Shown here piece after piece: positions 11,263-59,959 of a DNA stretch of 64,000 nucleotides. The position numbers and the translations under genes were made by a program. This stretch comes from a virus (lineage: Duplodnaviria > Heunggongvirae > Uroviricota > Caudoviricetes), in IMG/VR virus record IMGVR_UViG_3300002641_000714, one strand, 5' to 3'. The first letter of the stretch is position 1. Every line of letters begins with the position of its first letter. Below the pieces are notes generated by a model that searched no databases, had not been told where the DNA came from, and was given only the letters and a program-made list of their open reading frames with translations.

Positions 11263-11334
11263 TAAGAATAATTTAATTTTTCATTTAATATTTTATGATA
11301 ATATTTATAAATTGTTTAATAATTAAAAACAAAA

Positions 11335-11356
11335 GGTTGAACTTAAAAATTCAACC
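11335..11356 (-). terminator. Terminator hairpin
   Basis: ggttgaa / ttcaacc stem with an 8-nt loop. On the minus strand it is followed by ttttgttttt. Confidence 0.5.
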
Positions 11357-11377
11357 AAATAATTAAAATATTTCAAA

Positions 11378-11695
11378 TTAAATCATAATAACAAAGTTTT
11401 TTGCAGAATCATATTCATTAGTTGTACAAACCAAAGTATGTGCTTTATTAACTGCCTGTAATGATGTTACATCAAGATTTGGATTAACAGAACCTACAAT
11501 AAATAAATCATAATCATTCAAATTTGTTGCATCCTTCATCTCACCGATTATTGTATTATAATTATCAGTATCAAAATAACGTGTACAAATAACTGCATTT
11601 TCAATCTGACGTGATGCATATTTCTCAAGTTTCTTAATAAATTTTGTCATTTCCAGTCTGTCATTGGTAATAGCTGTTACAATTATTGTTTTCAT
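11378..11695 (-). CDS. Hypothetical protein
   Basis: 105-aa ORF with a TAA stop. Confidence 0.5.
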   Translation of the reverse strand: MKTIIVTAITNDRLEMTKFIKKLEKYASRQIENAVICTRYFDTDNYNTIIGEMKDATNLNDYDLFIVGSVNPNLDVTSLQAVNKAHTLVCTTNEYDSAKNFVIMI

Positions 11696-38822: not shown

Positions 38823-39551
38823 TTATTCTTCTTCATCTTCAATACCGCCATTATTAAATATATTCTCTAAATCAATAGCTAATTCACGAACAGCTAATAA
38901 ATTTATTTGTTCATCATCTGTAGAAATACATAAAATAGAACCAAAGGCTTTACCATGAATATCTTTAAGATTTAATACGGCATATGATTTAGCATTAATA
39001 TAATCCATTTGTTGTGCTAAATATCTATCAGCTTTTTCAAATTCTTCTTGTGTATAATAAAGCAATTTGTTTTTGCCTAAATCTTCTGATAACAAAATAT
39101 CATAACGTGCAACAATATCATCACGGAATTTTTCAATAGCTACATATTTTGCATTGTCTGTTGCTACTTCAAGAGTCATATCAAAACGACAAAATTGAAC
39201 ACCTGTCATTACGTTTTCAGAACCATTATGGTATTCAATTAAAAATATATATTCTGAATTAGTCAATGAAATATATTCTTGCATTGTATGTTTTGCTAAT
39301 GCATATGCTTGACGGGATGCCTCAAAATTTGCTCTGTGTGTAGCTTTATTTCTTTCATCTCTGTCATCTAATGAATTAGTTACCGCTTCAGATACAGATT
39401 TTTGTTGCATTGAATTATTTATAAAAGAGGTTACCACTGGGCCCATTAAGATCCATACCACAGCAATAGTGAAAAGTGTTTTGAACCACCATTTATCACC
39501 CCATTTATCAAACACTTTTGTTAAAAAATTCTCAGATATTTTTGTTTCCAT
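38823..39551 (-). CDS. Membrane protein (one TM helix), hypothetical
   Basis: TM helix WWFKTLFTIAVVWILMGPVV. TAA stop. Confidence 0.55.
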   Translation of the reverse strand: METKISENFLTKVFDKWGDKWWFKTLFTIAVVWILMGPVVTSFINNSMQQKSVSEAVTNSLDDRDERNKATHRANFEASRQAYALAKHTMQEYISLTNSEYIFLIEYHNGSENVMTGVQFCRFDMTLEVATDNAKYVAIEKFRDDIVARYDILLSEDLGKNKLLYYTQEEFEKADRYLAQQMDYINAKSYAVLNLKDIHGKAFGSILCISTDDEQINLLAVRELAIDLENIFNNGGIEDEEE

Positions 39552-39661
39552 GTTTTATTGATATTTTGTTGATTAACATTCTTTCTTTTATTATTTATTA
39601 AAGAATTAAAAATAAAAATTTTATTTTTTAATAATATATAAAATTTAATAAATATATTGAT

Positions 39662-40483
39662 ATGAAAAACTATAAACAAATATTAGAAGCAATTAATCGT
39701 GGTATTAAATTTGCATTAGACGATTTTGAAGATCAAGATGATATTCAAGGTTAGGATAATAGTAAAGTTAAGTATAAAGGCGGAATTAAAGACTGGTTAG
39801 ATTTAATGAGTGATGTTGTTGATTTAGGACTACCTTCAGGAACTCTTTGGTGCAAGTATAATTTGGGATGTGAAACTGAATTATTAAATGAAGAAGGTGA
39901 AAATAGTGTAGCTGATTGGTGGCAAGGTGATTATTTTGCCTGGGGTATTAATCAGCATAATGATTTTTTTACATGGGGGTCTTATGATTATTCAGACTGG
40001 GCTATAAAAATGTTGCCTAATTTAAAAACAGAAAATTGGGTTCTTAAATTATTTAAATATTGTTATGAAAAAGATACAGTTGCATCTATATGTGATGAAC
40101 CTGATAATAAAATGAAACTTGATTTGGAAGATGATGCAGCTTATGTAAAAAATAACAAATACTGCATACCGTCTACAGAACAATTTCAAGAATTATTAGA
40201 TAATACAAAACATAAATTTGTTGCAAATTATAATAATATTTCCGGACTAAACGGTATATTATTTGCATCTATCTATAATCAAAATACAATATTTTTTCCG
40301 CTTGCAGGTTATATGAATGAAGAAAATATCAGAAGAAAAAATACACAAGGTTTTTATTGGACATGTGATTTAAGCCCAAAATATCAAACATGCGCAAATT
40401 CATTTAATTTAACAAAGAAAACAGTAGAAGTTGGAAGTTATAGACGTGACCAAGGTTGTTCAATAAGGCCTGTATTAAAATAG
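39662..40483 (+). CDS. Leader-family-1 protein A with a DUF1566-like domain (1 in-frame TAG)
   Basis: ATG at 39662. Leader MKNYKQILEAINRGIKFALDDFEDQDDIQG, then TAG (39752-39754) exactly where paralogs E and F have Gln (QGQ), then DVVDLGLPSGTLWCKYNLG, YFAWG, IPSTEQFQELL and a C-terminal SIRPVLK. Confidence 0.65.
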
Positions 40484-40501
40484 TAAAAAAAACTCTAAAA
40501 T

Positions 40502-41341
40502 ATGAAAAATTATAAACATATATTAGAAGCTATAAATAGAGGAATTAAATTTGCATTAGATGACTTTGATGATAATGAAATTCAAGGTTAGATTAGTAGT
40601 AAAGTTAATCATCAACATGGAACTAAAGAATATCTAGACTTTGTGAATGAAGTTGTTGATTTGGGGCTTCCTTCAGGAACTTTGTGGTGCAAATATAACT
40701 TAGATGTTAATCCTAATCAGTTAACTAAACCTGAAGACTGGTATGGAAAATATTATGCATGGGGCGAATTAGGAGGAAATAAAACTAATAAAGATGGTAT
40801 AATTTATTTTTATTGGTCTAATTATAAATTTGGAAAATATGATTTAACTAAATATTGTAATGATTCAGAACATGGATTAAATGGTTTTACTGATAATTTA
40901 ACAGAACTTCAACTAGAAGATGATGTTGCATATCAAAACAAAAAACTTTATAATTATAAATTCCATATACCAACTAAAGAACAGTGTGAAGAATTATTGA
41001 AATATACTAATAATTATTGGGTTGTTAATTATAATCCTAATAAAACTATTCATAATCCAAAAGATGATGGCGGAATTCAAGGTTTGGATGGTGGAATATT
41101 TGAAGGAAGAAATGGAAATCAATTGTTTATTCCAGCAGCCGGATTCCGATAGGATTTATGTCGCTATCATGTTGGTTTTTATGGTCACTTGTGGTCTTCT
41201 AGTCTTTACTTAAAAGATTGTAGCAATGCTTACTGCTTAAGCATTAATTCAAACATTATCAATATATACAATGAGGAGCATACATATAATTATGGAGAAC
41301 GTATATATGGTTATAGTATTCGTCCAGTATTAAATTTATAA
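40502..41341 (+). CDS. Leader-family-1 protein B with a DUF1566-like domain (2 in-frame TAGs)
   Basis: Leader MKNYKHILEAINRGIKFALDDFDDNEIQG-TAG. The track ORF 40643..41152 is internal. Read-through of the TAG at 41150 gives the conserved C-terminus ...GYSIRPVLNL and a TAA at 41339-41341. Confidence 0.65.
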
Positions 41342-41354
41342 ATTAATTATTTAA

Positions 41355-42554
41355 ATGAAAAACTATAATAAAATATTAGAAGCTGTTAATAGAGGAATTA
41401 AATTTGCATTAGATGACTTTGATGATAATGAACTTCAAGGTCAAGTTAGCGGTAAAATCAATAATAAAAGTAATCTTAAAGATTGGCTTGAGTGGCAAGA
41501 ATGGATTAAAAAAATTGAAGCTAGAAGTTTAAAAACAGTAAAAGATATATAGGAATTAGCAGATTTTTCAAAATCAAGCAGATTTAAATATGAGGTTGGG
41601 AATAACCGTAATTTATTAATATCTTTAATTAATTATATAATTGAAATTGATTCAACTGCTGATTTAAACTGGATTGACGTATCTAAAATAACAGATATGA
41701 CACAATTATTTGATAATAGTAAATTTAATGGTAATATATCTGAATGGGATGTGTCTAATGTTGTAACAATGCGTCAAATGTTTATATTTTCTCATTTTAA
41801 TGGTAATATATCTAATTGGAATGTATCTAATGTTAAAGATATGCATAATATGTTCAGATGCTCTTATTTTAATGGTGATATATCTAATTGGAATGTATCT
41901 AATGTTAAAAATATGTCTGGTATGTTTAAAGATACATTTAATTTTAATAAACCATTAAATAATTGGAATGTTTCTGGTGTTGAAAATATGAGTGAAATGT
42001 TTCACGGATCTAGAAGATTTAATCAACCACTTAATAATTGGAATGTTTCTAATGTTAAAGATATGGCACAAATATTCTGTAATTGTAAATTTAATCAAGA
42101 TATTAATAATTGGGATGTTTCTAATGTGGAAGATATGCGTTGTATGTTTATGCAAAATCAATATTTTAATAAACCGCTTAATAATTGGAATGTTTCTAAT
42201 GTTAAAATGTTTGCAAGTATGTTTTGCGCATCTATATTTAATTAGCCGATTGGAAAATGGAATATGTCTAAAGCAATATCTCTTAGTGGAATGTTTAAGG
42301 GTTCAAGATTTAATTAGAATATTAATAATTGGAATGTTTCTGGTGTAAAATAGATGCATGAAATGTTTTGTAATTCCCGTTTTAATAAACCATTAGATAA
42401 ATGGAATGTTAGCAATGTTTGGGATATGGAATACATGTTTCAATCATCACAATTTAATCAAGATATATCAATGTGGAATATAAATCCTAATGTAAAAACA
42501 ATTTGTATATTTAAAGATGCTGTTATATAGAAAGAATATAAACCAAAAGTATTA
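41355..42554 (+). CDS. Leader-family-1 protein C with about 10 DUF285-like repeats (5 in-frame TAGs)
   Basis: Leader with QGQ (CAA). The track fragments 41355..41552 and 41697..42245 are in the same frame. Repeats have the form FNGNISNWNVSNVKDMHNMF. TAGs fall at repeat positions that are Q in sister repeats (FN-TAG-PIG vs FNQPL). TAA at 42552-42554. Confidence 0.65.
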
Positions 42555-42564
42555 AGAAAATATA

Positions 42565-43501
42565 AATGATAAATTATAAACAAATATTAGAAGCGGTTAA
42601 CAGAGGTATTAAATTTGCTTTAGATGACTTTGAAGATCAAGAAGATATTCAAGGTTAGATTAATAGTAAGGTTAATAATAAAAGTAATATTAAAGAATAT
42701 TTAGAATGGAATAAATGTCTTGATTTATTATTTAAGAATGTTGATACTAATTATTTTAATAAAATGGTTAAATTATCAAAAATAATTGGTATACAATATA
42801 AAGTTAATGATATAGATACATTAAAAAATATTATAAATTGGTCTTGCCAGATATGTCCGAATAATGATGCAAATTTAAATTGGTTAGATGTTTCTGAATT
42901 AACATCAATGTATGGTTTATTTGGAAATGATTATACTAAAAATTTTAATGGTGATATTTCTAAATGGGATGTATCTAATGTTGAAGATATGAATTATATG
43001 TTTTATAAAAGCAATTTTAATGGTAATATTTCTAAATGGGATGTGTCAAAAGTTAAACATATGAATTATATGTTTTCACACTCTATATTTAATGGTGATA
43101 TTTCTAATTGGAATGTATCAAAAGTTGAAACTATGATTGGTATGTTTAAAGAAGTTAGACCATATGATTACCCATTGGATAATTGGGATGTATCTAATGT
43201 TAAAAATATGTCTGACATGTTTAGTGATTCATGGTTTAACCAACCATTAAATAATTGGGATGTATCTGGTGTTGAAAATATGGCACATATGTTTTCTGGC
43301 TCACAATATGATTAGCCATTAGATAAATGGGATGTATCTAATGTTAAAAATATGGATTCAATGTTTTCTGCATCTCATTTCAGACAAAATATTAGTAATT
43401 GGAATATTAGTAAAGACTGTAATACTAATAATATGTGGAGATTAGGCATGTAGTATGATATTAATAAACCGCCAAAAACAAGATTAAGATATAGACGTTA
43501 A
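42565..43501 (+). pseudogene. Leader-family-1 paralog D, frameshifted in its leader, with a DUF285-repeat body
   Basis: From ATG 42565 the sequence MINYKQILEAVN is followed by an extra C (gttaacCagaggt at about 42600) that puts RGIKFALDDFEDQEDIQG-TAG-... and the repeat body (track ORF 42764..43315, read on through a TAG to the TAA at 43499-43501) in the +1 frame. This is a sequencing error, a pseudogene, or expression from the internal start at 42764. Confidence 0.4.
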
Positions 43502-43502
43502 A

Positions 43503-43532
43503 AAATCTCTAAGATATATTTCTTAGAGATTT
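43503..43532. terminator. Bidirectional terminator hairpin
   Basis: Perfect 12-bp stem aaatctctaaga / tcttagagattt between the plus island and the minus polymerase gene. Confidence 0.6.
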
Positions 43533-43536
43533 TCTT

Positions 43537-45084
43537 TTAGAATAATGATGAAACATAACATAAATCTGAAGTAAAAGGTTGATATCCGAGAATTTCAATA
43601 ATTCTGTTTAACGGTGTTAAAACTAAATCTTCAAATTGTTGGTTATAATCAATCGGCAAAGCAAATTCTAATGGATACTTTCCAGGTGTAAAACCGAAAA
43701 CAGGATAATTAGGATCTGTAGTTTTATAGAATTTTACCTTGTCACGAGTTTTAATTGTTTCATATTTTAATTTATATTTCTTATTCTTTGGATTATTTAA
43801 TATATAATTATAAATTCCTGCAGCTTTAACATGAATTGGACAATGCTCGCCAAACACAAAATTATTTTTATCATCTAGAATAAATTTATCATAATCAGAA
43901 ATCTGAACACTTTTGCAAATATCTTCCGGATTTTGTTTAATAAAATCATCTTTAAATTTCTTAAGCATTGCATAAATATCATCAAATTCCGGTGCATTAT
44001 TATGTGTAATATACCAATTCATAATGCTTCTAATAAATTGATCTTGACATTTTTTTGCAAATGGTGGAGTAGAACCTTGAATTAATTCAAGTCCCTTATA
44101 GATAACATGTTCACCCGGCGTTACATAGATATTTGGTTCAAGAAAACATTCTGACATTGCATAATGTTTCTTTGCAATCATAATTGCAGTATCAGCAACT
44201 TTTTCAAGTTCAAGATTTTCAAGATTAACATCACAGTTGAATTTTTGTGCATACTCATCATATTTTTTATTCATATATGGGCCAATTCCGTAATTCCACA
44301 TATCAACAACAAAACGTGTCGCTTTATTAAAATCGTGTATTCCTAAAAATGTTGTAACACGCCCAAATTCAACATAAATTGAATCAGTATCACCATTTAT
44401 TGTTAAACTACATGTTGGATCATCTTCCAAATATGATGTTTTGCCCATATATGCAAACGGGTTTTCCTTAGAATTTAATGGATTTTTAGCTTTTAGTGCT
44501 AATGAATTAAGTGGTTCATTTTGTGTAATTTTGCCTTTATTAATTTCAAATTCTTTTATTTTTTCGTAAGGTTCTCCAAGATATTCGCCAAAAGATGTTT
44601 TAACTGAAACTTTTTTAAGTAAAGCTTTCATTTCTTTTGATAAATTATCTTGATCTTTAACTTCATTTTTACTTATTGGCAATTTAACTAAAACCCATTG
44701 TTTATCCGGTGTTTTAGCATAAAAATCATCAGTGGTTTCAATATCATATTTTTCCATCCACTCGAATAAAGGAACATAAATAATTCTGTTATATTCTTCT
44801 TGTGATTGAAAAATTCCCCTAAAATACTTATTGACACAGTTTTCTGAATAGTGGTTCAAATCCTGTCCTTGAAGTGTAATTGATTCAGCGACTGCGGTAT
44901 TATGACCAACGAAATACTTACTTGCGCAACTTCCATATACCGAATTAATAAATGTTTTAATAGCCAATTGTTTAGTTTCGTAATATCCTGATAAACTTTT
45001 ACACTCATTAATTGCATTATATAATTCTTCTTTAGAACAATTATCCGGATCTATTTCTATAAATTTGCTTTTATAAACTGCCAT
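43537..45084 (-). CDS. Family-B DNA polymerase, C-terminal fragment (motifs B and C plus thumb)
   Basis: KTFINSVYGSCA (KxxxNSxYG, motif B) at residue ~43 and INGDTDSIYV (motif C). The exonuclease domain and motif A are absent from this ORF and from the adjacent ORFs. Confidence 0.75.
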   Translation of the reverse strand: MAVYKSKFIEIDPDNCSKEELYNAINECKSLSGYYETKQLAIKTFINSVYGSCASKYFVGHNTAVAESITLQGQDLNHYSENCVNKYFRGIFQSQEEYNRIIYVPLFEWMEKYDIETTDDFYAKTPDKQWVLVKLPISKNEVKDQDNLSKEMKALLKKVSVKTSFGEYLGEPYEKIKEFEINKGKITQNEPLNSLALKAKNPLNSKENPFAYMGKTSYLEDDPTCSLTINGDTDSIYVEFGRVTTFLGIHDFNKATRFVVDMWNYGIGPYMNKKYDEYAQKFNCDVNLENLELEKVADTAIMIAKKHYAMSECFLEPNIYVTPGEHVIYKGLELIQGSTPPFAKKCQDQFIRSIMNWYITHNNAPEFDDIYAMLKKFKDDFIKQNPEDICKSVQISDYDKFILDDKNNFVFGEHCPIHVKAAGIYNYILNNPKNKKYKLKYETIKTRDKVKFYKTTDPNYPVFGFTPGKYPLEFALPIDYNQQFEDLVLTPLNRIIEILGYQPFTSDLCYVSSLF

Positions 45085-45110
45085 ATAATTTTATTAATTT
45101 TATTTTATAA

Positions 45111-45293
45111 TTATATGTTTTTATTATTTTTTGTTTTAATTAAATATTCAATGAACTTCCAAAAATGTTGTTCAAGTAAAACTTCATTATATGTTTCGTC
45201 TATTTTTTCTAAACTAGATTTTGGAACTCCAGAAATCTCATATATTTTTTGTTTAAAATAATCTAAATCAATTGTTTCCATTATATTTCTCAA
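45111..45293 (-). CDS. Small hypothetical ORF (TTG start; uncertain)
   Basis: 60-aa ORF with a TAA stop. It overlaps a possible read-through extension of the HNH gene. Confidence 0.3.
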   Translation of the reverse strand: MRNIMETIDLDYFKQKIYEISGVPKSSLEKIDETYNEVLLEQHFWKFIEYLIKTKNNKNI

Positions 45294-45366
45294 AATAAAA
45301 TTTTATTTCTTGCGGATGTTCTTCTACTAAACCATACTTAATCATCATTCGATATGTAAAATTTCG

Positions 45367-45579
45367 CTAGCAACATATCAATCCATGTTGTAATTCTTCT
45401 CTAAATCCTTCTATATCATTGGAGCCTTTTCTAAAATTACATGCTCTGCATGATGGATTTAGATTTTCTATAGAATCATCACCTGTATAATCTTTTGGTA
45501 ATAATTTTTCTTTATCTTTTTCAGACCAATTATGAAATACAGGTTTAATGTGATCTACCTGCATATCTTTATAATCCAA
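45367..45579 (-). CDS. HNH homing endonuclease
   Basis: VDHIKP...ENLNPSCRACNFRKG is an HNH motif. It lies immediately upstream of the truncated polB. The stop is TAG. If read through, the frame stays open for about 33 more codons to a TGA at about 45268. Confidence 0.7.
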   Translation of the reverse strand: MDYKDMQVDHIKPVFHNWSEKDKEKLLPKDYTGDDSIENLNPSCRACNFRKGSNDIEGFREELQHGLICC

Positions 45580-45604
45580 TTCGCATCCGCAATATGCGCA
45601 GTGT

Positions 45605-46072
45605 TTATTGTATTTGTTCCAAATTTGTTCCCTCTATATTTTGTTTAGTTTCATTATTATCTTCTGCTAATTTTTTAAGTGCAAATAGAACAATAGATTC
45701 CATTGAATCATTATATGTTTGACATGAACATTTATATATTTCATTTTCACTTACCCACCATATTCCATGCCAAAGTGGGAAAAAATATTCAGTAGTTTCT
45801 ATTTCTTTTCTTTCAATAAATCTATGAGGTTCAACCCATATTTTCAGATTTTTTATTTCTCTCAACCAATCACATATTTGTGATAAAGTTGGTGCAGACA
45901 TTACTGCATTATAGATTGCATTTTCACATTCTTCATTCCAGTCTCTATATTCGCCTTCTTCATATAATTCATATTCTGCATTTGATGTTTTTGCTAAATA
46001 GAAACTATTGGTTTTTTCGTGAAAACCAACTTTTTGCAATAATTTAGCTATTTCAATTGATACTTTTTTCAT
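45605..46072 (-). CDS. Hypothetical protein
   Basis: 155-aa ORF with a TAA stop. Confidence 0.5.
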   Translation of the reverse strand: MKKVSIEIAKLLQKVGFHEKTNSFYLAKTSNAEYELYEEGEYRDWNEECENAIYNAVMSAPTLSQICDWLREIKNLKIWVEPHRFIERKEIETTEYFFPLWHGIWWVSENEIYKCSCQTYNDSMESIVLFALKKLAEDNNETKQNIEGTNLEQIQ

Positions 46073-46077
46073 AATTA

Positions 46078-46839
46078 TTACTTATCTGTTTGTTCTAATT
46101 GTTTAATTTGTAACTTATTCCATAATTTAATTACTTCATGTTCTTTTTCATATTTTAAATCTAAATTATATTTAGATTCATCTTCAACACGATTCAAAAT
46201 ATCCGGATTATAACCAAATTCTTTCATAGCATCACGCAATGCGATATTCCATACAATATCTCCGTTTTCATCATTATTAAGAACTTCAACTTTATATTTA
46301 GAAAAAGCCTGAGAAGATGTGTCAAGCATCATTGCAGAAAGCTCAATTGTATCTTTTCCCATTTGTAAAATTTTTCTTGAACTATCCCATAAATTTTTTG
46401 TGGTGATGCTTAATGTATCAATTCTATACGGGTTTTCAAAATTGACAATTCTGGCCAGATTTGCAACATACATATCTTCTGTATATAACACTGCTGTATA
46501 TTTTGAAAAATCAATATTATATTTTTTGAAATATTCGTCTCGACTAATATTCGGAAGTGGTGTATCATTATGGACTTCAGTAACTATTAAAATAATATAA
46601 TCACCAAATTCCCGTTTTGACATACGCCACGTACTATTTACAATTTCATTAATAATCTCTTCGGAATATCTGGATTTTTCAAAAATTGCATAATAATGTT
46701 CACATTCGATATGCTTACATTTGCCAATTTCACCAGCAGTATAATAAAACTCTAAATCTTCTGGATATTTGATAGTTGTTTCACACATTTCATTCCATCC
46801 AGAAACTTTAATTTTTTGTTCAATCAATTTTGTTTTCAT
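46078..46839 (-). CDS. Hypothetical protein
   Basis: 253-aa ORF with a TAA stop. Confidence 0.55.
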   Translation of the reverse strand: MKTKLIEQKIKVSGWNEMCETTIKYPEDLEFYYTAGEIGKCKHIECEHYYAIFEKSRYSEEIINEIVNSTWRMSKREFGDYIILIVTEVHNDTPLPNISRDEYFKKYNIDFSKYTAVLYTEDMYVANLARIVNFENPYRIDTLSITTKNLWDSSRKILQMGKDTIELSAMMLDTSSQAFSKYKVEVLNNDENGDIVWNIALRDAMKEFGYNPDILNRVEDESKYNLDLKYEKEHEVIKLWNKLQIKQLEQTDK

Positions 46840-46853
46840 ATATTTAATATTTT

Positions 46854-48524
46854 TTAGTTAATTGCTTTTGTTATTTCTATTTTTGAAAAACCGTCTTTTG
46901 TTACACTAATGATTTTATTAAAATTATCAAGATATAAATCAGTATGTGAAACAATAAAACAACTTAAATTATTTTCTTGTGCAAAATGTCTCAAGAAATC
47001 AAGAACTAATCCGGATGTTTCATTGTCAAGTGAAGATAAAACTTCATCAATAGATAATATATTAATTGATGGAAATCTTCTCTTCAATAATTTAAATAAA
47101 CTACAAAGAACAATTAAATCCACGCGTGTTTCTTCACCATCTGATAATGATTCTGGCGTCAATTCAACTCCAAGTTCTTTGAGGTGTGGTTCAAATTTAG
47201 TGTCAATTTCCAATTGATATGGGAAATTAACCAAGTCCAGATTATCTTCAATTTCTTTATTCAAGATTGGTAAATAATTTACAATAACTTTTTGTTTAAC
47301 ACCGTCAATAGAATAAACAATTGCTAATGTCTGTAATTCTTTTAATTTTGCAGAATCTTCAGACAGTTGTTTATTAATATCTTCTATTTGTTTTGTTGTA
47401 TTATTGATAATATTATTAATTCCCTGGAACTCTGCATTATTCTTAAGTTGTTCATTCAATGCATTATTCTGTGCAGTTAATTGCTGAATATCAGAATTTA
47501 ATTGATATATTGCAGTATTCAGTTTTCCAATATATTCTGTTATTGCATTATAATCTACATTTGCTTTTTCTAATTGTTTATTAAGTTCTATAGTTATATT
47601 ATCTTTTTCTGCTTTAAGATTTAAAAGTTTAGTTTTCAAATCTTTAACAGAATCTGTTGAGAATGACATTCCGCATGTCGGGCATTTGTCTTGAGAATAC
47701 AAATCAATTTTTTGGTGAATAACTTGAATATTATAATTATTCTCATATTGTTTTTGCTTGATTTCTGTAATGCTTCCTAATGCTTCAGTTTGTTTTTGAG
47801 TATAAGTTGACAATGCATCTGTCAATTTTTTAATATTCTCATTATCTTTTGAAATCTTTTCAGTATTTGTTCTAATAATTTCTTTATTCTCTTCAGTTTG
47901 TGAAGATTGTTGAAGTTTTGATAATTCAATATTTGCATTATTCAAAGTTTGTGTCAATTGGAACAAAGTATTATTATTAGAATTAATCATATTTCCAATT
48001 TCACGGGCGTCTTTTTTAATTTTCTCAAATGCAATATTGACAACTTCAAGATTGAAAACTCTATCAATAATTTCTTTTCGATCTGCTGGAGACATAGTTA
48101 AAAATGATTTGAATTTCTTCATAGAAATAGAAATCATATTAGAAAATGCCTTAATAGGAATATCTGCAATTTCTTTATCAATATAATCTTGTGCAGATGA
48201 AACACCATAAGAATTGATATTAACTCCATCACGGAAAACCTGCAAATCATTAGGAGTGAATGAACGTTCAATAATATATTCATGCCCGCCTTTTTCAATA
48301 ACAGCTTTAACCCAGCCATGTTTATTGATTCGGTTATGAATTGCAGATTTTGTCAATCCTGGAGTTTTTCCAAATAATGCTATACATGGAAGTGAGAGAA
48401 TTGTAGATTTTCCGGAACCTGAAATTCCTTTTAACAAAACTAATTCTCCATCAACAAATTCAACTTTTTGAATTTCTTCTCCAAATGATCTAATATTTTT
48501 CCACTCAATCGATTTAAATTTCAT
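46854..48524 (-). CDS. sbcC: SbcC/Rad50-like recombination ATPase (T4 gp46-like)
   Basis: Walker A LKGISGSGKST, long coiled coil with a zinc-hook CPTCG, ABC signature LSDGE, Walker B LSIDEV. Confidence 0.8.
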   Translation of the reverse strand: MKFKSIEWKNIRSFGEEIQKVEFVDGELVLLKGISGSGKSTILSLPCIALFGKTPGLTKSAIHNRINKHGWVKAVIEKGGHEYIIERSFTPNDLQVFRDGVNINSYGVSSAQDYIDKEIADIPIKAFSNMISISMKKFKSFLTMSPADRKEIIDRVFNLEVVNIAFEKIKKDAREIGNMINSNNNTLFQLTQTLNNANIELSKLQQSSQTEENKEIIRTNTEKISKDNENIKKLTDALSTYTQKQTEALGSITEIKQKQYENNYNIQVIHQKIDLYSQDKCPTCGMSFSTDSVKDLKTKLLNLKAEKDNITIELNKQLEKANVDYNAITEYIGKLNTAIYQLNSDIQQLTAQNNALNEQLKNNAEFQGINNIINNTTKQIEDINKQLSEDSAKLKELQTLAIVYSIDGVKQKVIVNYLPILNKEIEDNLDLVNFPYQLEIDTKFEPHLKELGVELTPESLSDGEETRVDLIVLCSLFKLLKRRFPSINILSIDEVLSSLDNETSGLVLDFLRHFAQENNLSCFIVSHTDLYLDNFNKIISVTKDGFSKIEITKAIN

Positions 48525-49123: not shown

Positions 49124-49250
49124 TGATTAATTATATAATTTATTAAAAAATATAAAATTAAAGAAATCGGATTTCTTTCCTTTTTATTTCTTATTATTTT
49201 TGAAATTTATCACAATAAATAAATATATTATAAAAAATAATATAATAATT

Positions 49251-49661
49251 ATGAAAAGAGATAACAAAAAAGCTTTATATGAAAGCATTATGACTTCTGT
49301 AGCTAGAGAAGTTAAAAAGACTTTAAATGAAACTGTAGTAGATACAGAAGATAATGAAACTGAGACAATCAATCATTGTTTAGATGAGATTAAACATTGT
49401 TTGTATAATGGCTGTGATTTTACACAATATAACAAGTATATTGATAGTAAAAAATTTTATGTAATAACTGGATGTATATATGATTGTATTTAGCAAGCTA
49501 GCAATATTGCAAAAAATCTTACAACACTCGCTGAAAATTCTGCAGTATATAAATAGAATTTAAATAATAGTATATCTATATCTATGTTAGAAAAATGCAG
49601 CAATCAATTAGAAGATCTTGATAGTCTTATGAGACGGTTAAAACGCGCATTAAATTATTAA
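49251..49661 (+). CDS. Leader-family-2 protein (2 in-frame TAGs)
   Basis: Leader MKRDNKKALYESIMTSVAREVKKTLNE. The TAG at 49491 is read through (second TAG at 49554) to the TAA at 49659-49661. Upstream motif acaataaataaatatattataaaaaataatat. Confidence 0.55.
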
Positions 49662-49790: not shown

Positions 49791-50696
49791 ATGCGAAAAA
49801 ATTCTGATTTATATAATAAAATAATGGAGCAAGTTGCAAAAGAAGTTAAACGTTCTTTAAATGAAGTTGACGATATTGCTCCAGTTAAACAAGAAGTTTC
49901 TGGTGAAGTTTATTTAGTTCGCTGCGATGGAATGAATAAGAAAACATTAGATATGTTATCATCTAAATTACCAGCATTTGATAATTATGGTTCCGGTTCT
50001 ATCAGAGTAACATGCAAAACTCATGAAGAAGTTATTAAAGTCATTTCTTTATTGGTTAATTCAAATGTTTTAGATATTGATAATTCTCTTGGACAATCTC
50101 CTAGAATTTCAATTCAAAAAGTTAATAAGAATTCTGTTAATGATTCTGTTAATGAAAATCGTCAAGAGTTATCACGTGATTATATTCAAATGAGCAAAAT
50201 TAAAACACCAAGGCAACGAGTTAAATTTGAAATAATCCAAAAAATTAATAAAGGTGAAATTCCTGCAACTCCTGAAGCAATCCGTGCAGAAATTGATAAA
50301 TCCGGTGAATGGATAGATCGTTCTGAACCAAGAATTCAAATGGATGTTGATCTTATTATGAGAAAAACTACTGATGAAATAATGGAAGGTGATTTTATAA
50401 CAGATTTCATATATTCAAAAGATAATTATGAACCTGGTGAATTTAGTAATGGAATGGAAGCTGCAGAAAATCATGTTAAATGGTTAAAAAAGCATGGGCT
50501 TGGTGTAAGGGTTGAAGAAGGTAGATATTCATTTAAATATTATATTCATTATAGCACTAAAAAACAATTTAATGATTTAGTTCAATGGATGGCATGGCAT
50601 TGTGGATTTACTGATACAATAACAAATCCACCATCAAAAGAAGATAGAAAATATTTTGAAGAAATTGTTAAATCAGGAAAGAAAACTACATGGTAA
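49791..50696 (+). CDS. Leader-family-2 protein (301 aa)
   Basis: Leader variant MRKNSDLYNKIMEQVAKEVKRSLNE. TAA stop and no TAG. Confidence 0.6.
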   Translation: MRKNSDLYNKIMEQVAKEVKRSLNEVDDIAPVKQEVSGEVYLVRCDGMNKKTLDMLSSKLPAFDNYGSGSIRVTCKTHEEVIKVISLLVNSNVLDIDNSLGQSPRISIQKVNKNSVNDSVNENRQELSRDYIQMSKIKTPRQRVKFEIIQKINKGEIPATPEAIRAEIDKSGEWIDRSEPRIQMDVDLIMRKTTDEIMEGDFITDFIYSKDNYEPGEFSNGMEAAENHVKWLKKHGLGVRVEEGRYSFKYYIHYSTKKQFNDLVQWMAWHCGFTDTITNPPSKEDRKYFEEIVKSGKKTTW

Positions 50697-50737: not shown

Positions 50738-51859
50738 TTAATCATTTGCAATTTCTGCTTCAGCATCTTTTAAATACTGATCACTTGTTTTTATTAATTG
50801 CAATTTAAATTCTTCACTGACATCTAAATCATTAATAGCTTCATTTATTAGTTCAGATGTTGTTTTTTCTTTATATTCTATATTCTCATCAACATTAACA
50901 CTTAGTGTTTGTCTGCTAATAACGGGTTTGACAAATTTTGCGGTTGTTCCAATTCCTAAATTATAAATATCAAATTTCTTTTTATATTCTGGAATATTTT
51001 CTTCTTTAATGATAATATAATTATAATTGTTGTTTAGAAATTCTTGTCGTTCTCCAATAGACATTTCAACATATTTTTCCATTAATAAACTGTGATATAT
51101 TGGGCTATAATGATTTTCAATAAATTCATGTTTATTAGTTTTAAGATTAAGCAAATATAATCCTTTTTGATTTCCAATATCTTTTTTATCCATATGATAT
51201 GGTGAACCAACATATATACATTTCTTTGTTTCTTGACGTTTATGAATATGTCCTGAATAAACAACCCCATTAAATGCATCTGTATTGACACCTTCAGTAA
51301 TAAGCATTCCATTGTCAAATCGCATTTTTGCTAAATCTGTATGCATAAATGCATATTTGGCTTTATTGTTTTCTATTAAACAATTTGTTTCTTGTGAATG
51401 ATCGCCTAAATATGGAATTGCAATAATTTTAGTATGTTTAGCACCTTCATAATTTATATTCAATATAGTTGGTTCAGTAATAAGATGGACATTATTTATA
51501 TATTGAATCGCACGAAGTGAAGTGTTTCCTGTATTAGTTTTCTTTGCTAAATCATGATTTCCATTTATAATATAAGTTTCTATTTCTTTAGCAATATCTT
51601 CAAATACATCAATTGCTAAATTATAAACATTAATATCAGTGGCTCTGCGATCATTAAAAGTATCCCCAAGGTTCACCAGAACCATTCTTTCACCATCTTT
51701 TAATGAGGTTTTAAGTTCTTTAACCTTTGGAATAAAAAAGTCATAGAAATAGTTTTTCATATTCTCTTGCCACTCTTCTGAATTAACATGAGTGCCAAAA
51801 TGAATATCAGAAATCATTAAAATATGCGATGCTTTAATGTCTATTTGTTTTGTTTCCAT
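50738..51859 (-). CDS. sbcD: SbcD/Mre11-like nuclease (T4 gp47-like calcineurin-fold phosphoesterase)
   Basis: ILMISDIHFG, GDTFND, GNHD and GHIH phosphoesterase motifs. Confidence 0.8.
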   Translation of the reverse strand: METKQIDIKASHILMISDIHFGTHVNSEEWQENMKNYFYDFFIPKVKELKTSLKDGERMVLVNLGDTFNDRRATDINVYNLAIDVFEDIAKEIETYIINGNHDLAKKTNTGNTSLRAIQYINNVHLITEPTILNINYEGAKHTKIIAIPYLGDHSQETNCLIENNKAKYAFMHTDLAKMRFDNGMLITEGVNTDAFNGVVYSGHIHKRQETKKCIYVGSPYHMDKKDIGNQKGLYLLNLKTNKHEFIENHYSPIYHSLLMEKYVEMSIGERQEFLNNNYNYIIIKEENIPEYKKKFDIYNLGIGTTAKFVKPVISRQTLSVNVDENIEYKEKTTSELINEAINDLDVSEEFKLQLIKTSDQYLKDAEAEIAND

Positions 51860-51956: not shown

Positions 51957-52403
51957 ATGAAAAAGATAGTAAAAAAAGCTTTATATGAAAGCATTATGAC
52001 ATCTGTGGCTAAAGAAGTTAAGAAAGTATTGAATGAATCAGATTCATTAAGTGATTCATTAAATGATATTAAAAAACAACTTATTGAAAATGGTGATGGA
52101 ATATATTTTGTATATAGCGATTATATATCACGTGATGCAGCATACCTTTATGTTGTTAAAAATGGAGAAATTATTCATCAAGAACACCCAAGTTGTTTTA
52201 TGACACTTAATTATTATGGCGATGGTAAGCCATGCGGTATTATTCCTTCATTAAATAAATTAATTCGTGAATATTATGAATTAAATTTATATGTAGCAAA
52301 TAAAGGCTGGTATACATTTCCGCAAAAATGGAGAGAATGTGATTGGACTACAACACTTGAAAAATATGGTATTAATTCTACACTAATAAATATTGATATT
52401 TAA
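51957..52403 (+). CDS. Leader-family-2 protein (148 aa)
   Basis: Leader MKKIVKKALYESIMTSVAKEVKKVLNE. TAA stop. Upstream motif ctaaataaatatattgataataaaaaataat. Two tandem hairpins follow, at about 52413-52437 and 52466-52496. Confidence 0.6.
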   Translation: MKKIVKKALYESIMTSVAKEVKKVLNESDSLSDSLNDIKKQLIENGDGIYFVYSDYISRDAAYLYVVKNGEIIHQEHPSCFMTLNYYGDGKPCGIIPSLNKLIREYYELNLYVANKGWYTFPQKWRECDWTTTLEKYGINSTLINIDI

Positions 52404-57209: not shown

Positions 57210-57980
57210 TTACAAATTTATTACTGGACGAATTGGAAGCCCTTTGTAACGAGCGCACTAAGCACAAAAAATTTCAGGTTTTAATTTATTAGTATTAAAA
57301 TTTAATGTCATGCCATATTGCATATTATTAATTTTAGAATTAATAACTGTATTAGTCCAATAATTTCCATTTGTAGGATATTCATTTACATCTTTTTCTC
57401 CACATTTTTTACATGCTGGAAAAAATAATTCATTACCATTTTTCCCTATAAATAACCAGCCATCTAAATAATATACATTTCTATATTTTTCAACTGGTTT
57501 ATTTATTGTATTTTTTATTAATTCATTAAACTATTCAGGTGTTGGTATGCAAAACTTTAAATTACTATTCTAATACGCAGCATCATCTTCAGATAGTAAT
57601 GTATTTAAATTATCTTTATTATTATATTTAGTTAATTCTTTTCCAAATTTATATGTTTCCCATGAATATTCTGGCTTTGTCCCTAATTCTGTTTCACCCC
57701 AAGCAAAGTAATCACCATACCAATCTAAATATGTAGTATAATAAGGATCTTTATTTAAAAACCTCCAATCACACCCAAGATTATATTTACACCAAAGAGT
57801 TCCTGAAGGAAGTCCAAGATCAACTACTTCATTCATTAAATCTAACCATTCTTTAGTTCCACCTTTATACTTAACTTTACTACTAGTTTGACCTTGAATA
57901 TCATCTTGATCTTCAAAATCATCTAAAGCAAACTTAATGCCTCTATTAACAGCTTCTAATATTTTATTATAGTTTTTCAT
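57210..57980 (-). CDS. Leader-family-1 protein E with a DUF1566-like domain (3 in-frame TAGs)
   Basis: The track ORF 57570..57980 (leader with QGQ, DLGLPSGTLWCKYNLG, YFAWGE) ends at a TAG. Read-through gives ...CIPTPEQFNELIKNT... and the family C-terminus GLPIRPVINL, with a TAA at 57210-57212. Confidence 0.6.
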
Positions 57981-59959
57981 ATATTATTAATATCTTCCTT
58001 ATTTACAACAGCTCTTATTTGTAATCCAACACATCTATCAATATCTTTAATTGACGGTTTTACATTTTTGAATATATTTAATTCATATGCCATGTATTCT
58101 TTACCTTTAATATTTTCACATGCCCAATAATAACCGCCATATTTATAGATACTTAATTTATCTTTTTCCATAATATTTGTATATGGCATAAATAATTTTT
58201 CTTTATTAATTTTACTGATAAATGTAATACCGTTTAATCCTGTAATTCCTTGATAATCCTATTCAAATTTTATTTTAGTATTTTTTAATAATTCTTCAAA
58301 TTGTGCTTTTGATGGAATACAAAAATTAAAATTAAAAGATTTAGTTAATTTTTGAACAGCTGCATCATCATCTGGTATAAGCGTATTTAATTTATCAAAT
58401 CTGACATTATATTTAGGATTATTACCATATTTAGTTAATTTATCCCATGCACCGTTTGCATACTTATAAGTTGTCCAATCATATTGTGCTTTTGGTTCCA
58501 ATTCACCCCAAGCATAATAATTACCTATCCAATCTTTAGCATTATCTAATTTATCAATATTAACACCTAAATTATATTTGTGCCATAATGTTCCTGAAGG
58601 CAATCCTAAATCAACAACTTCTTTCTTTATATCTAAATATTCTTTCCAACTACCTTTATAATGGTTTGTTTTACTGCTAGATTGACCTTGAAGTTCTTCA
58701 TCATTATCAAAATCATCTAAAGCAAAACGAACATTATTATAATTAAATGATTCATTTAAATTTACTTTATTTTGATATGGACGTAATGTTACTTGCATTA
58801 TATAACATACTGTTGGAAATAAATTTTTCCATAAATAATTTTTGGGATCTGTTTTCTTTTTAAGATCAAATACGACAGGATCATTATTATTTAAAATAAA
58901 ATTAATATATAATTTCTTATTTTCAGCAAAATTAACTGTAAAATAAAAACCAAAATCAGTTTTTTCTAATCCAGTAATTTCAATAGTATCAACTAATGCA
59001 TCTTTTAATAATAATGTTCTTGTAATATTTTTATAAATTAATTTTTCATATTCTTTATTAAAATAGTCAAGTGCAAGATCAATACGTTTTTCTCTTGGCA
59101 CCGGTAAACGTCCAAGTGAATCTGTTTCTTCTCGGAAATATGTATATGGTATCATTAAAAAATGTAAATTCTAAATATATGTATTATATTCATTAATTTG
59201 TTCATTATATTCATCTATTTCATTTTCCGGATGATTGTTTATTTCTGCATAATTACGATTATCTTGCAAATCATCAACTAATTTTTGATAATGCTACTGT
59301 AATTTATAAAATTCTATATATTTTTTATTACTTTCACCTGTATTATATTTGTCATAACAATCATTTATAAAATCAACTAAATATTGTTCAAGATCCATTT
59401 TTATTTCATAGGTATCTTCTAATAACTTATTTTCAATTCCAATTTTATTATTTTCTTTGCTTTGTAATGAATTAGAATTTAAACTGTATTTTAATTCATA
59501 ATATTTTTTAACAGATTGATAACGTTCTAATAATGTTTTATCATTAGAAGACAAATCCAAACAATCTCTTGATTTAATATTAATTGTTGCCGCATTTTGT
59601 TTAATATATTGTGTAAATGTAGAACGTGTCTGAATTGTATTTTCTAAATATTCTAATAGATATTTAATAAAATTTTTAGGTTCATACATTAAAAATGATT
59701 CAAGATCCTGATACTTCTATGCACCATTTATCATTCCATAAAAATCATGAATATCATTTTGAGTATATTTAGTTTTATTATTTCTTAAATATTGAAGATA
59801 ACTATATATTTTTTTAATAATATTTTCAGATTTACCGCATTTTTCTTTTGGTAAACCATATTTTAAACCTACTTCTAATTTTTCTGATTTAGAAGGAACC
59901 TAATCTTTGATATGTAATAAATCTTGTCTAACTTCAAATTCTGAAATTTTATTTTCCAT
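57977..59959 (-). CDS. Leader-family-1 protein F: long N-terminal extension, internal leader remnant, DUF1566-like domain (about 5 in-frame TAGs)
   Basis: Track fragments 59294..59689, 58259..59155 and 57977..58189 are co-linear in one frame, and the frame stays open further upstream to an ATG at about 59959. Contains ...NVRFALDDFDNDEELQGQSS...VVDLGLPSGTLWHKYNLG...YYAWGE...CIPSKAQFEELL...ITGLNGITF...GLQIRAVV. Its TGA (57977-57979) overlaps the ATG of gene E. My coordinates are within about 1 nt. Confidence 0.5.

Follow-up and report, generated by a model that had tools for sequence, protein, structure and literature searches.

The family-B DNA polymerase (PolB) gene considered here lies on the reverse strand of IMGVR_UViG_3300002641_000714, an IMG/VR virus record of the Caudoviricetes; the whole 64,000-nucleotide (nt) stretch analysed is called the window. 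The product, of 515 amino acids (aa), is the C-terminal half of a polymerase (the C-half): the second finger helix with motif B, a clade-specific insert, palm motif C, the KKxY motif and the thumb, followed by a hydrophobic C-terminal tail (...SSLF) that is probably clamp-binding. The part that would precede it, with the 3'-5' exonuclease and motif A, is called the N-half. The gene and its catalytic motifs, placed by an alignment of 29 homologues, are as follows.

43537..45084, (-) strand: PolB C-half gene, 515 aa, with an ATG start, a TAA stop and no in-frame TAG
44932..44973, (-) strand: motif B (KQLAIKTFINSVYG), residues 38-51, aligned with NRKILINSLYG of T4 gp43
44380..44394, (-) strand: motif C (GDTDS), residues 231-235, invariant or nearly so in the 29 homologues
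44161..44172, (-) strand: KKxY motif (KKHY), residues 305-308, with K305, K306 and Y308 invariant in the 29 homologues

A preliminary description of this locus, made from the sequence alone, had recognised motif B, motif C and the thumb in the 515-aa open reading frame (ORF), and Pfam, phmmer, the homologue alignment and AlphaFold/Foldseek all confirm them. The Pfam profile DNA_pol_B matches the motif B region, residues 32-89, at 3.9e-13 (profile positions 147-203 of 453); there the columns K38, Q39, K43, F45, N47, S48, Y50 and G51 are invariant or nearly so. In phmmer, residues 14-94 match residues 528-608 of T4 gp43 and residues 229-425 match 615-808, and phrog_1918 ('DNA polymerase', 382 positions) covers the protein almost end to end. 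The AlphaFold model (mean predicted local distance difference test, pLDDT, 82; predicted template modelling score, pTM, 0.71) begins with two long helices, followed by palm and thumb, and its top Foldseek matches in the PDB are all RB69 gp43, with a probability of 1.00. Motif B, motif C, KKxY and the thumb fold place the protein with the C-terminal portion of PF00136. It is not a single-chain PolB, as Pfam finds in it neither PF03104 nor anything N-terminal of the second finger helix. Between motifs B and C sits an insert of ~130 aa (residues ~100-230; 44400..44790), predicted to be a small alpha/beta module with a pLDDT of ~85-95 for residues 90-180.

The best phage matches of the C-half are Prevotella Lak megaphages, at 57-59% amino-acid identity and from Lak-A, B and C genomes, and the window is 100% identical to the ENA contig ERZ12302819 NODE_557 (L006). 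Lak phages are reported to read TAG as a sense codon (PMC8346664). In the window, two in-frame TAG codons occur in an HNH gene upstream of the polymerase gene and 2-5 in each gene of an opposite-strand cassette downstream of it, and these reading frames are continuous only with TAG as sense. Judged by its sequence, the window is a Lak-like Prevotella megaphage with TAG reassigned to sense (code 15). Standard-code ORF lists fragment its TAG-containing genes, and the capsid and sheath genes are longer in the calls made on the identical ENA contig (capsid 639 aa versus 522 aa).

The recoding bears on whether the truncation might be an artefact, with TAG read-through hiding an N-terminal extension of the gene or a chimeric contig having removed the N-half. 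TAG is indeed read as sense in the neighbourhood, in the HNH gene, the four cassette genes and the longer capsid and sheath calls. However, several TAA and TGA codons, not just TAG, interrupt the frame upstream of the C-half ATG, so that the start is genuine and read-through as the source of the truncation is ruled out; gene calls with TAG as sense on the identical contig still give 515 aa. The chimera half of this explanation is taken up below, with the junctions of the cassette.

The complementary half is found in relatives. In L003/L004, an 83% identical relative, a 510-aa N-half gene combines DNA_pol_B_exo1 with the motif A part of DNA_pol_B, and it is matched almost end to end by phrog_2062 (502 positions), a family separate from the phrog_1918 of the C-half. 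Alignment of both halves to gp43, which the preliminary description had called for, puts the cut at the finger tip: residue 485 of the N-half pairs with residue 487 of RB69 gp43, within the KRK finger helix, residue 14 of the C-half pairs with T4 gp43 residue 528, and the start of the C-half falls at about T4 residue 515. A more distant relative, L067 (49% identity), has an unsplit single PolB of 916 aa, and in a three-way alignment the N-half stops opposite L067 residue 487 and the C-half takes over at 488, without loss or duplication. By these alignments, the break falls in the variable loop that connects the two finger helices.

The same division is widespread. Database searches return 702 homologues for the C-half and 891 for the N-half. 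Stand-alone C-halves of 505-516 aa span the full query at 51-87% identity, and a search with the L003/L004-type N-half finds hundreds of stand-alone N-halves of ~490-530 aa, with identities as low as 42%; conservation of the split extends to roughly 40-50% identity. Such a distribution marks the split as old and clade-wide, with two conserved genes of ~510 aa each. Because the unsplit relative L067 lies inside the clade, the split is probably independent of that in T4-like phages. Each of the 15 published complete Lak genomes has one N-half place and a C-half at one or two places that are the pieces of one gene, and none of the 15 has a full-length PolB. In the NCBI annotation of one Lak genome both PolB pieces are called simply 'DNA polymerase'. 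As a separate observation, the records LR756500, LR756501 and LR756503 (huge uncultured phages of 462-735 kb) also have N-half-like and C-half-like PolB matches lying apart, by ~13 kb in LR756500 and by >100 kb in LR756501, and the split PolB may reach beyond the Lak clade.

The two genes vary in their arrangement. In the nearest relatives the C-half comes first and the N-half follows 20-36 nt later (L003/L004, L054, L081-L089, L031, L032, L035 and L069); the gap in L003/L004 measures 19 nt. Computed from the L003 and L081 coordinates, the adjacent halves are out of frame with each other, and read-through therefore cannot fuse the two cistrons. A distance of 4-6 kb separates the halves in L011/L014 and L021/L072, and one of ~7 kb in Lak-B; in the complete Lak-A1 and Lak-C1 genomes they are >200 kb apart on opposite strands, and in the complete Lak-A2 genome the C-half lies at 345,475-347,614 (+) and the N-half at 122,992-124,524 (-).

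The preliminary description held that the 3'-5' exonuclease and motif A were lacking, and this is true of the protein and of the 64-kb window alike: tblastn with cyanophage P-SSM3 gp43 and with the clade's own N-half finds no N-half, exonuclease or motif A in the window, and a Pfam scan of the large window ORFs returns sheath, CCA/poly(A) polymerase, gp32 and others, and no exonuclease domain. The expectation that the N-half would be found elsewhere or further upstream is borne out in its first part, as it lies outside the window; in the nearest relatives its place is immediately downstream of the C-half, not upstream.

At that downstream place the window has other genes, listed here from the synteny breakpoints against L003, L054 and L081 and from the gene calls in L006.

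39619..43528, (+) strand: four-gene cassette of 3.9 kb, in place of the N-half block
39662..40486, 40502..41341, 41355..42569 and 42566..43501, (+) strand: the four cassette genes

The window is ~82-97% identical in DNA, by segment, to L081 and L054, and shares with them the HNH gene and a 56-aa ORF. Homology to L081/L054 ends ~20 nt past the C-half stop and resumes ~65 nt upstream of a 242-aa gene (38823..39551). In between, the relatives have a 3.3-kb block made up of the N-half, a Metallophos phosphoesterase, a 119-aa ORF and a dUTPase. The junctions of the C-half with the cassette and of the cassette with the 242-aa gene recur in independent assemblies, L006 (100%), L012 (97%), L080 and L090-L092 (~87%). 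The same junctions in independent samples and assemblers rule out an assembly artefact, and an artefactual truncation, by read-through or by chimerism, has next to no chance of being the explanation.

The fate of the N-half block can be followed in other genomes of this layout. In the samples ERZ1029116 and ERR3201403, the contigs L092 and L091, which carry the C-half with the cassette, co-occur with the contigs L094 and L095, on which the N-half is followed by a 524-aa ORF and then by the same phosphoesterase, 119-aa ORF and dUTPase. The relocated block is flanked on both sides by paralogues of the cassette family. For C-half and N-half proteins of this layout alike the longest listed contig is one of 491,091 bp, and this shared length suggests that both halves reside in one genome. 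When all proteins of a relocated N-half locus (L093) are used in tblastn, the window matches are of the paralogous cassette family only. The N-half block would thus have been relocated, not lost, in the lineage of the window, probably through recombination among the dispersed cassette-family paralogues.

Outright loss would instead make the window a defective or helper-dependent genome that draws on the subunit of a co-infecting relative. The 64 kb are without an N-half, and sister strains with adjacent halves occur in samples with the neighbouring accessions ERZ12302813 and ERZ12302816, as such dependence would allow. Against it, the C-half is under strong purifying selection, loss of the dUTPase and the phosphoesterase would have to coincide with that of the N-half, genomes of the same layout hold the whole block at another locus, and published Lak-A and Lak-C genomes also have their halves >200 kb apart. 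Dependence on a helper is accordingly quite unlikely.

The C-half could also be a decaying remnant or duplicate, with a full-length PolB elsewhere doing the work, which was the outcome that the preliminary description had named as contradicting its proposal. The N-half is gone from its usual syntenic position in the lineage of the window, as decay might leave it. Yet the ratio of non-synonymous to synonymous substitution rates (dN/dS) of the C-half is 0.098 against L081 (DNA identity 93%) and 0.13 against L003, the gene has no frameshifts, and its catalytic motifs are all intact. The same layout persists between lineages ~87% identical in DNA, and a full-length copy is absent from the 15 complete Lak genomes. 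Because of the dN/dS of 0.098 and the intact motifs, the C-half is taken to be functional and not degraded; by these signs it is a working subunit gene under purifying selection and no relic, and decay is a very improbable account of it.

The preliminary description attributed the split to an HNH endonuclease close upstream, where the following genes lie.

45268..45654, (-) strand: free-standing HNH endonuclease gene, 128 aa, with in-frame TAG at 45634..45636 and 45367..45369
45111..45281, (-) strand: conserved 56-aa ORF, called in L006, L081 and L090

The endonuclease had been described as an ORF at 45367..45579, and the HNH assignment stands while its size of 70 aa does not. The product of the 128-aa gene carries complete motifs (CAYCGC...VDHIKP...N...CRACN, that is the CxxC...DH...N...CxxCN zinc and ββα-Me signature), matches Pfam HNH (PF01844) at 2.1e-8 over profile positions 1-46 of 47, and matches phrog_2118 at 6e-41. 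Because of its two in-frame TAG codons, the gene would be translatable only where TAG is decoded as sense; the polymerase gene has none. A small ORF does lie between it and the polymerase gene, more likely of 56 aa than of the 60 aa (45111..45293) first given; it is 68% identical to a 53-aa ORF of L003 and matches nothing in Pfam or PHROGs. In the next two upstream genes, of 155 aa and 253 aa, Pfam and PHROGs find no polymerase domain, as had been said of them.

The HNH unit (45267..45656) is a 390-bp presence/absence polymorphism. It is present in L054, L081, L080, L032, L012 and L097 and absent from L003, L011 and L090, and the split is identical in all of them. It lies ~180 nt upstream of the polymerase start, flanked by the 155-aa ORF (phrog_12005, a family of unknown function) and the 56-aa ORF.

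Insertion of an HNH homing endonuclease into an intact polB, splitting the enzyme and leaving the N-half upstream or elsewhere, has in its favour that the HNH gene is within 200 nt of the polymerase start and that T4-like phages provide known cases of a gene 43 split associated with an endonuclease (PMC2988022). However, the unit lies outside the PolB halves, between two ORFs that are not polymerase genes; L003, L011 and L090, which are free of it, are split in the same way; and in L054 and L081, which bear it, the N-half is directly downstream of the C-half. The split is moreover conserved to roughly 40-50% identity, whereas the HNH unit is polymorphic among genomes ~87-97% identical in DNA. 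That the insertion split the polymerase is therefore highly improbable. What remains of the earlier proposal is a split PolB half with its partner outside the ORF, neither caused nor marked by the endonuclease. By its distribution the HNH gene is a bystander, an unrelated mobile endonuclease with homing-type behaviour, and not the cause of the split.

Intein or intron remnants, for which the preliminary description suggested looking, are not found by Pfam or Rfam in the window allele. Pfam finds no PF14890 intein domain in its C-half, and Rfam returns no introns at the gathering threshold in the whole window and none at E<=1 in 43300..46200; the intron of the L056 N-half served as positive control for the RF00028 search, at 85 bits. 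A scan of the window found no tRNA genes.

In relatives, selfish elements do occupy both genes. The junction D234|S235 of the window C-half (nt 44383/44382) is an empty intein insertion site. L011 and L090 have a 165-aa mini-intein (494 bp; SVIKC...VHN|S) exactly at DTD|S (L090 10001..12043). At the same point, L012 (1134..2893) has a 1.76-kb insertion made up of IntN, a free-standing ORF and IntC, which gives the order C1-IntN, ORF, IntC-C2, where C1 and C2 are the pieces of the C-half, and its downstream extein is 99% identical to the window gene. The same fractured layout at DTD|S is seen in L096 and L097 (6623..9968), and the free-standing ORF measures 367-390 aa across L012, L096 and L097. 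In L012 this ORF has no Pfam match and in PHROGs matches only phrog_22677, a family of unknown function; a label of Vsr-like homing endonuclease, based on an 'EFYGDYWH' motif, is not claimed, as Pfam gives it no support. At L015-type loci (~63-65% identical to the queries) the order is N-half, two ORFs, IntC-C2 piece, and no C1-IntN piece turned up in their ~10-kb flanks.

Almost all listed stand-alone N-halves (~490-540 aa) have PF03104 and PF00136 only, the exceptions being the longer proteins P0220 and P0221, which also carry PF14890. In L056 a group I intron (11280..11539; RF00028, 85.4 bits, E = 2e-22) lies inside motif A of the N-half (DFA|SLYPS), and a group I intron in motif A is also found in L050, L057, L058 and L064, of a more distant Lak-like group.

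The C-half of the window is therefore best regarded, with a probability of about 0.85, as the C-terminal subunit of a naturally split, heterodimeric replicative PolB of a Lak-like megaphage, whose partner would be encoded at a distant locus. An ancestral single-chain PolB would have been cut at the finger tip. The 3'-5' exonuclease would come with the N-half (~510 aa), together with the N-terminal domain, palm motif A and the first of the finger helices, which bears the KRK triphosphate contacts; the C-half would contribute motif B on the second finger helix, motif C, KKxY and the thumb, and probably also the clamp-binding tail. The separately translated halves would assemble non-covalently into an active enzyme, as inferred from gp43A/43B of phage 25 and from split Pfu. 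One chain would then bring motif A and the other motifs B and C, with the finger helices pairing where the subunits meet. The halves are joined by no intein, intron or read-through. In the lineage of the window, a module swap would have put the opposite-strand cassette in the place of the N-half block, and the block would have moved to a distant locus.

Several points weigh against this picture. Assembly and activity of the two subunits are argued by analogy with those other enzymes. The insert of the C-half has no counterpart in RB69 or T4 gp43. The unsplit state of L067 may be ancestral or may be a secondary re-fusion. Finally, the N-half of this exact strain was not located in the 64-kb window searched, and it could have been lost outright; the 515-aa protein itself turned up only on a 74.8-kb ENA contig and is listed on one of 204 kb, while IMG/VR and JGI scans and look-ups of P0122, P0123 and P0247 led to other lineages.

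Split PolB enzymes have precedents. Passages of PMC3061061 and PMC2988022 describe, after Petrov et al. (2006 and 2010), a bicistronic gp43 (43A/43B) in the T4-related phages 133, 44RR, 31, 25 and 65, and passages of the same papers report that the gp43A/43B subunits of Aeromonas phage 25 co-purify and are active. As in the Lak-like phages, a phage PolB is broken in the variable finger tip, the polypeptides are translated separately, and homing-endonuclease genes are sometimes nearby. Unlike the 43A/43B phages, where N precedes C and the genes are 2 bp to 3 kb apart, the nearest Lak-like relatives have C before N; in other Lak-like relatives the halves are separated by kilobases to >200 kb, some of them lying on opposite strands, and the window lacks the partner. 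The clade also differs, being that of the Lak megaphages of Prevotella, with TAG recoded.

The split PolB of Methanobacterium (Methanothermobacter) thermautotrophicum, as set out in a section of PMC3061061 that cites Kelman et al. (1999), is similar in having unlinked subunit genes, 85 kb apart, and one reconstituted enzyme. The same section puts its break in the palm, ~83 residues C-terminal to the finger tip, and the enzyme is cellular, not that of a phage. The engineered Pfu split (PMC3061061) resembles the Lak-like one in its break between the finger helices and in the reassembly of the fragments to full activity; it differs in being artificial, bicistronic and in N-then-C order, and its cut falls inside helix alpha-O, not in a long tip loop. 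'Fractured genes', with a split intein and a free-standing endonuclease gene (Dassa et al. 2009, PMC2677866), have the layout found at DTD|S in L012, L096 and L097. The window allele, unlike these, is an empty site, the finger-tip break is without intein halves, and the L012 ORF is without a Pfam match. Finger-tip split PolB in phages and unlinked split PolB genes in an archaeon are thus already known; new are the Lak-like clade, the reversed C-then-N order, the repeated unlinking and the module swap in the lineage of the window. The searchable literature contains no description of a split or reordered PolB in Lak phages.

For annotation, the C-half is a gene that annotators of huge gut phages will take for a 'truncated' or 'fragmented' polymerase when it is actually a subunit of a clade-wide split replicase, and the pieces have to be concatenated in PolB-based phylogenies and in checks of the completeness of Lak-like phages. 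The finding extends the known gp43-type finger-tip splits to a large, uncultured and globally distributed clade of megaphages. The subunit genes tolerate reversal, separation by kilobases and placement >200 kb away on the opposite strand without losing selection, and the pair is a hot spot for selfish elements (mini-intein, split intein with ORF, motif A group I intron and HNH gene), which makes it a useful natural series on how far essential genes tolerate fragmentation. A bolder and rather unlikely extension is that the Lak-type PolB is an obligate two-subunit enzyme (three-piece with the split intein) whose subunit genes are freely relocating modules, with a finger-tip break that is perhaps non-neutral. 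If that were so, the break might widen the nucleotide-binding pocket, as in the engineered Pfu split, and alter substrate range or fidelity, for example towards modified nucleotides, and unlinking might permit separate regulation of the exonuclease-bearing N-half and the catalytic C-half.

All four cassette genes share an N-terminal module of ~45 aa (MKNYKQILEA[IV]NRGIKFALDDF...), fused either to DUF285 repeats or to a 'LGLPSGTLWCKYNL' domain that has no Pfam match; the 311-aa cassette protein matches DUF285 at 3e-95. Paralogues of the family also lie at 57213..58735 (-), and every copy has 2-5 in-frame TAG codons. Where this family flanks the N-half block, as in L093, it may serve as a recombination substrate for module shuffling. 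Next to the cassette, before the ATG of the 242-aa gene, the intergenic stretch 39552..39620 holds a conserved TTCTTTAATAAATAATAAAAGAAAGAAT...TTAATCAACAAAATATCAATA sequence; relatives of either layout, with or without the module swap, retain it, and it may act as a phage promoter or leader.

At the other end of the cassette, a hairpin separates the C-half from the DUF285 gene that converges on it.

43500..43535, no strand assigned: AT-rich 15-bp hairpin with A-run and T-run flanks, directly after the C-half stop and before the convergent DUF285 gene

Its folding energy is -16.8 kcal/mol (z = -4.35; none of 200 shuffles as stable), it is conserved in L090, and it looks like a bidirectional terminator between convergent genes. 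A scan for G+C-rich terminators had missed this AT-rich hairpin, which folding then confirmed; a sigma-70 promoter scan did no better than on shuffled sequence.

A second family of small ORFs, with the N-terminal motif KKALYESIMTSVA[KR]EVKK.LNE, occurs at 49200..49493, 49791..50696 and 51957..52403 (+). The recombination nuclease genes of this region, one gp46-like (46854..48524) and one gp47-like (50738..51859), have members of this KKALYESIMTSVA family interspersed between them.

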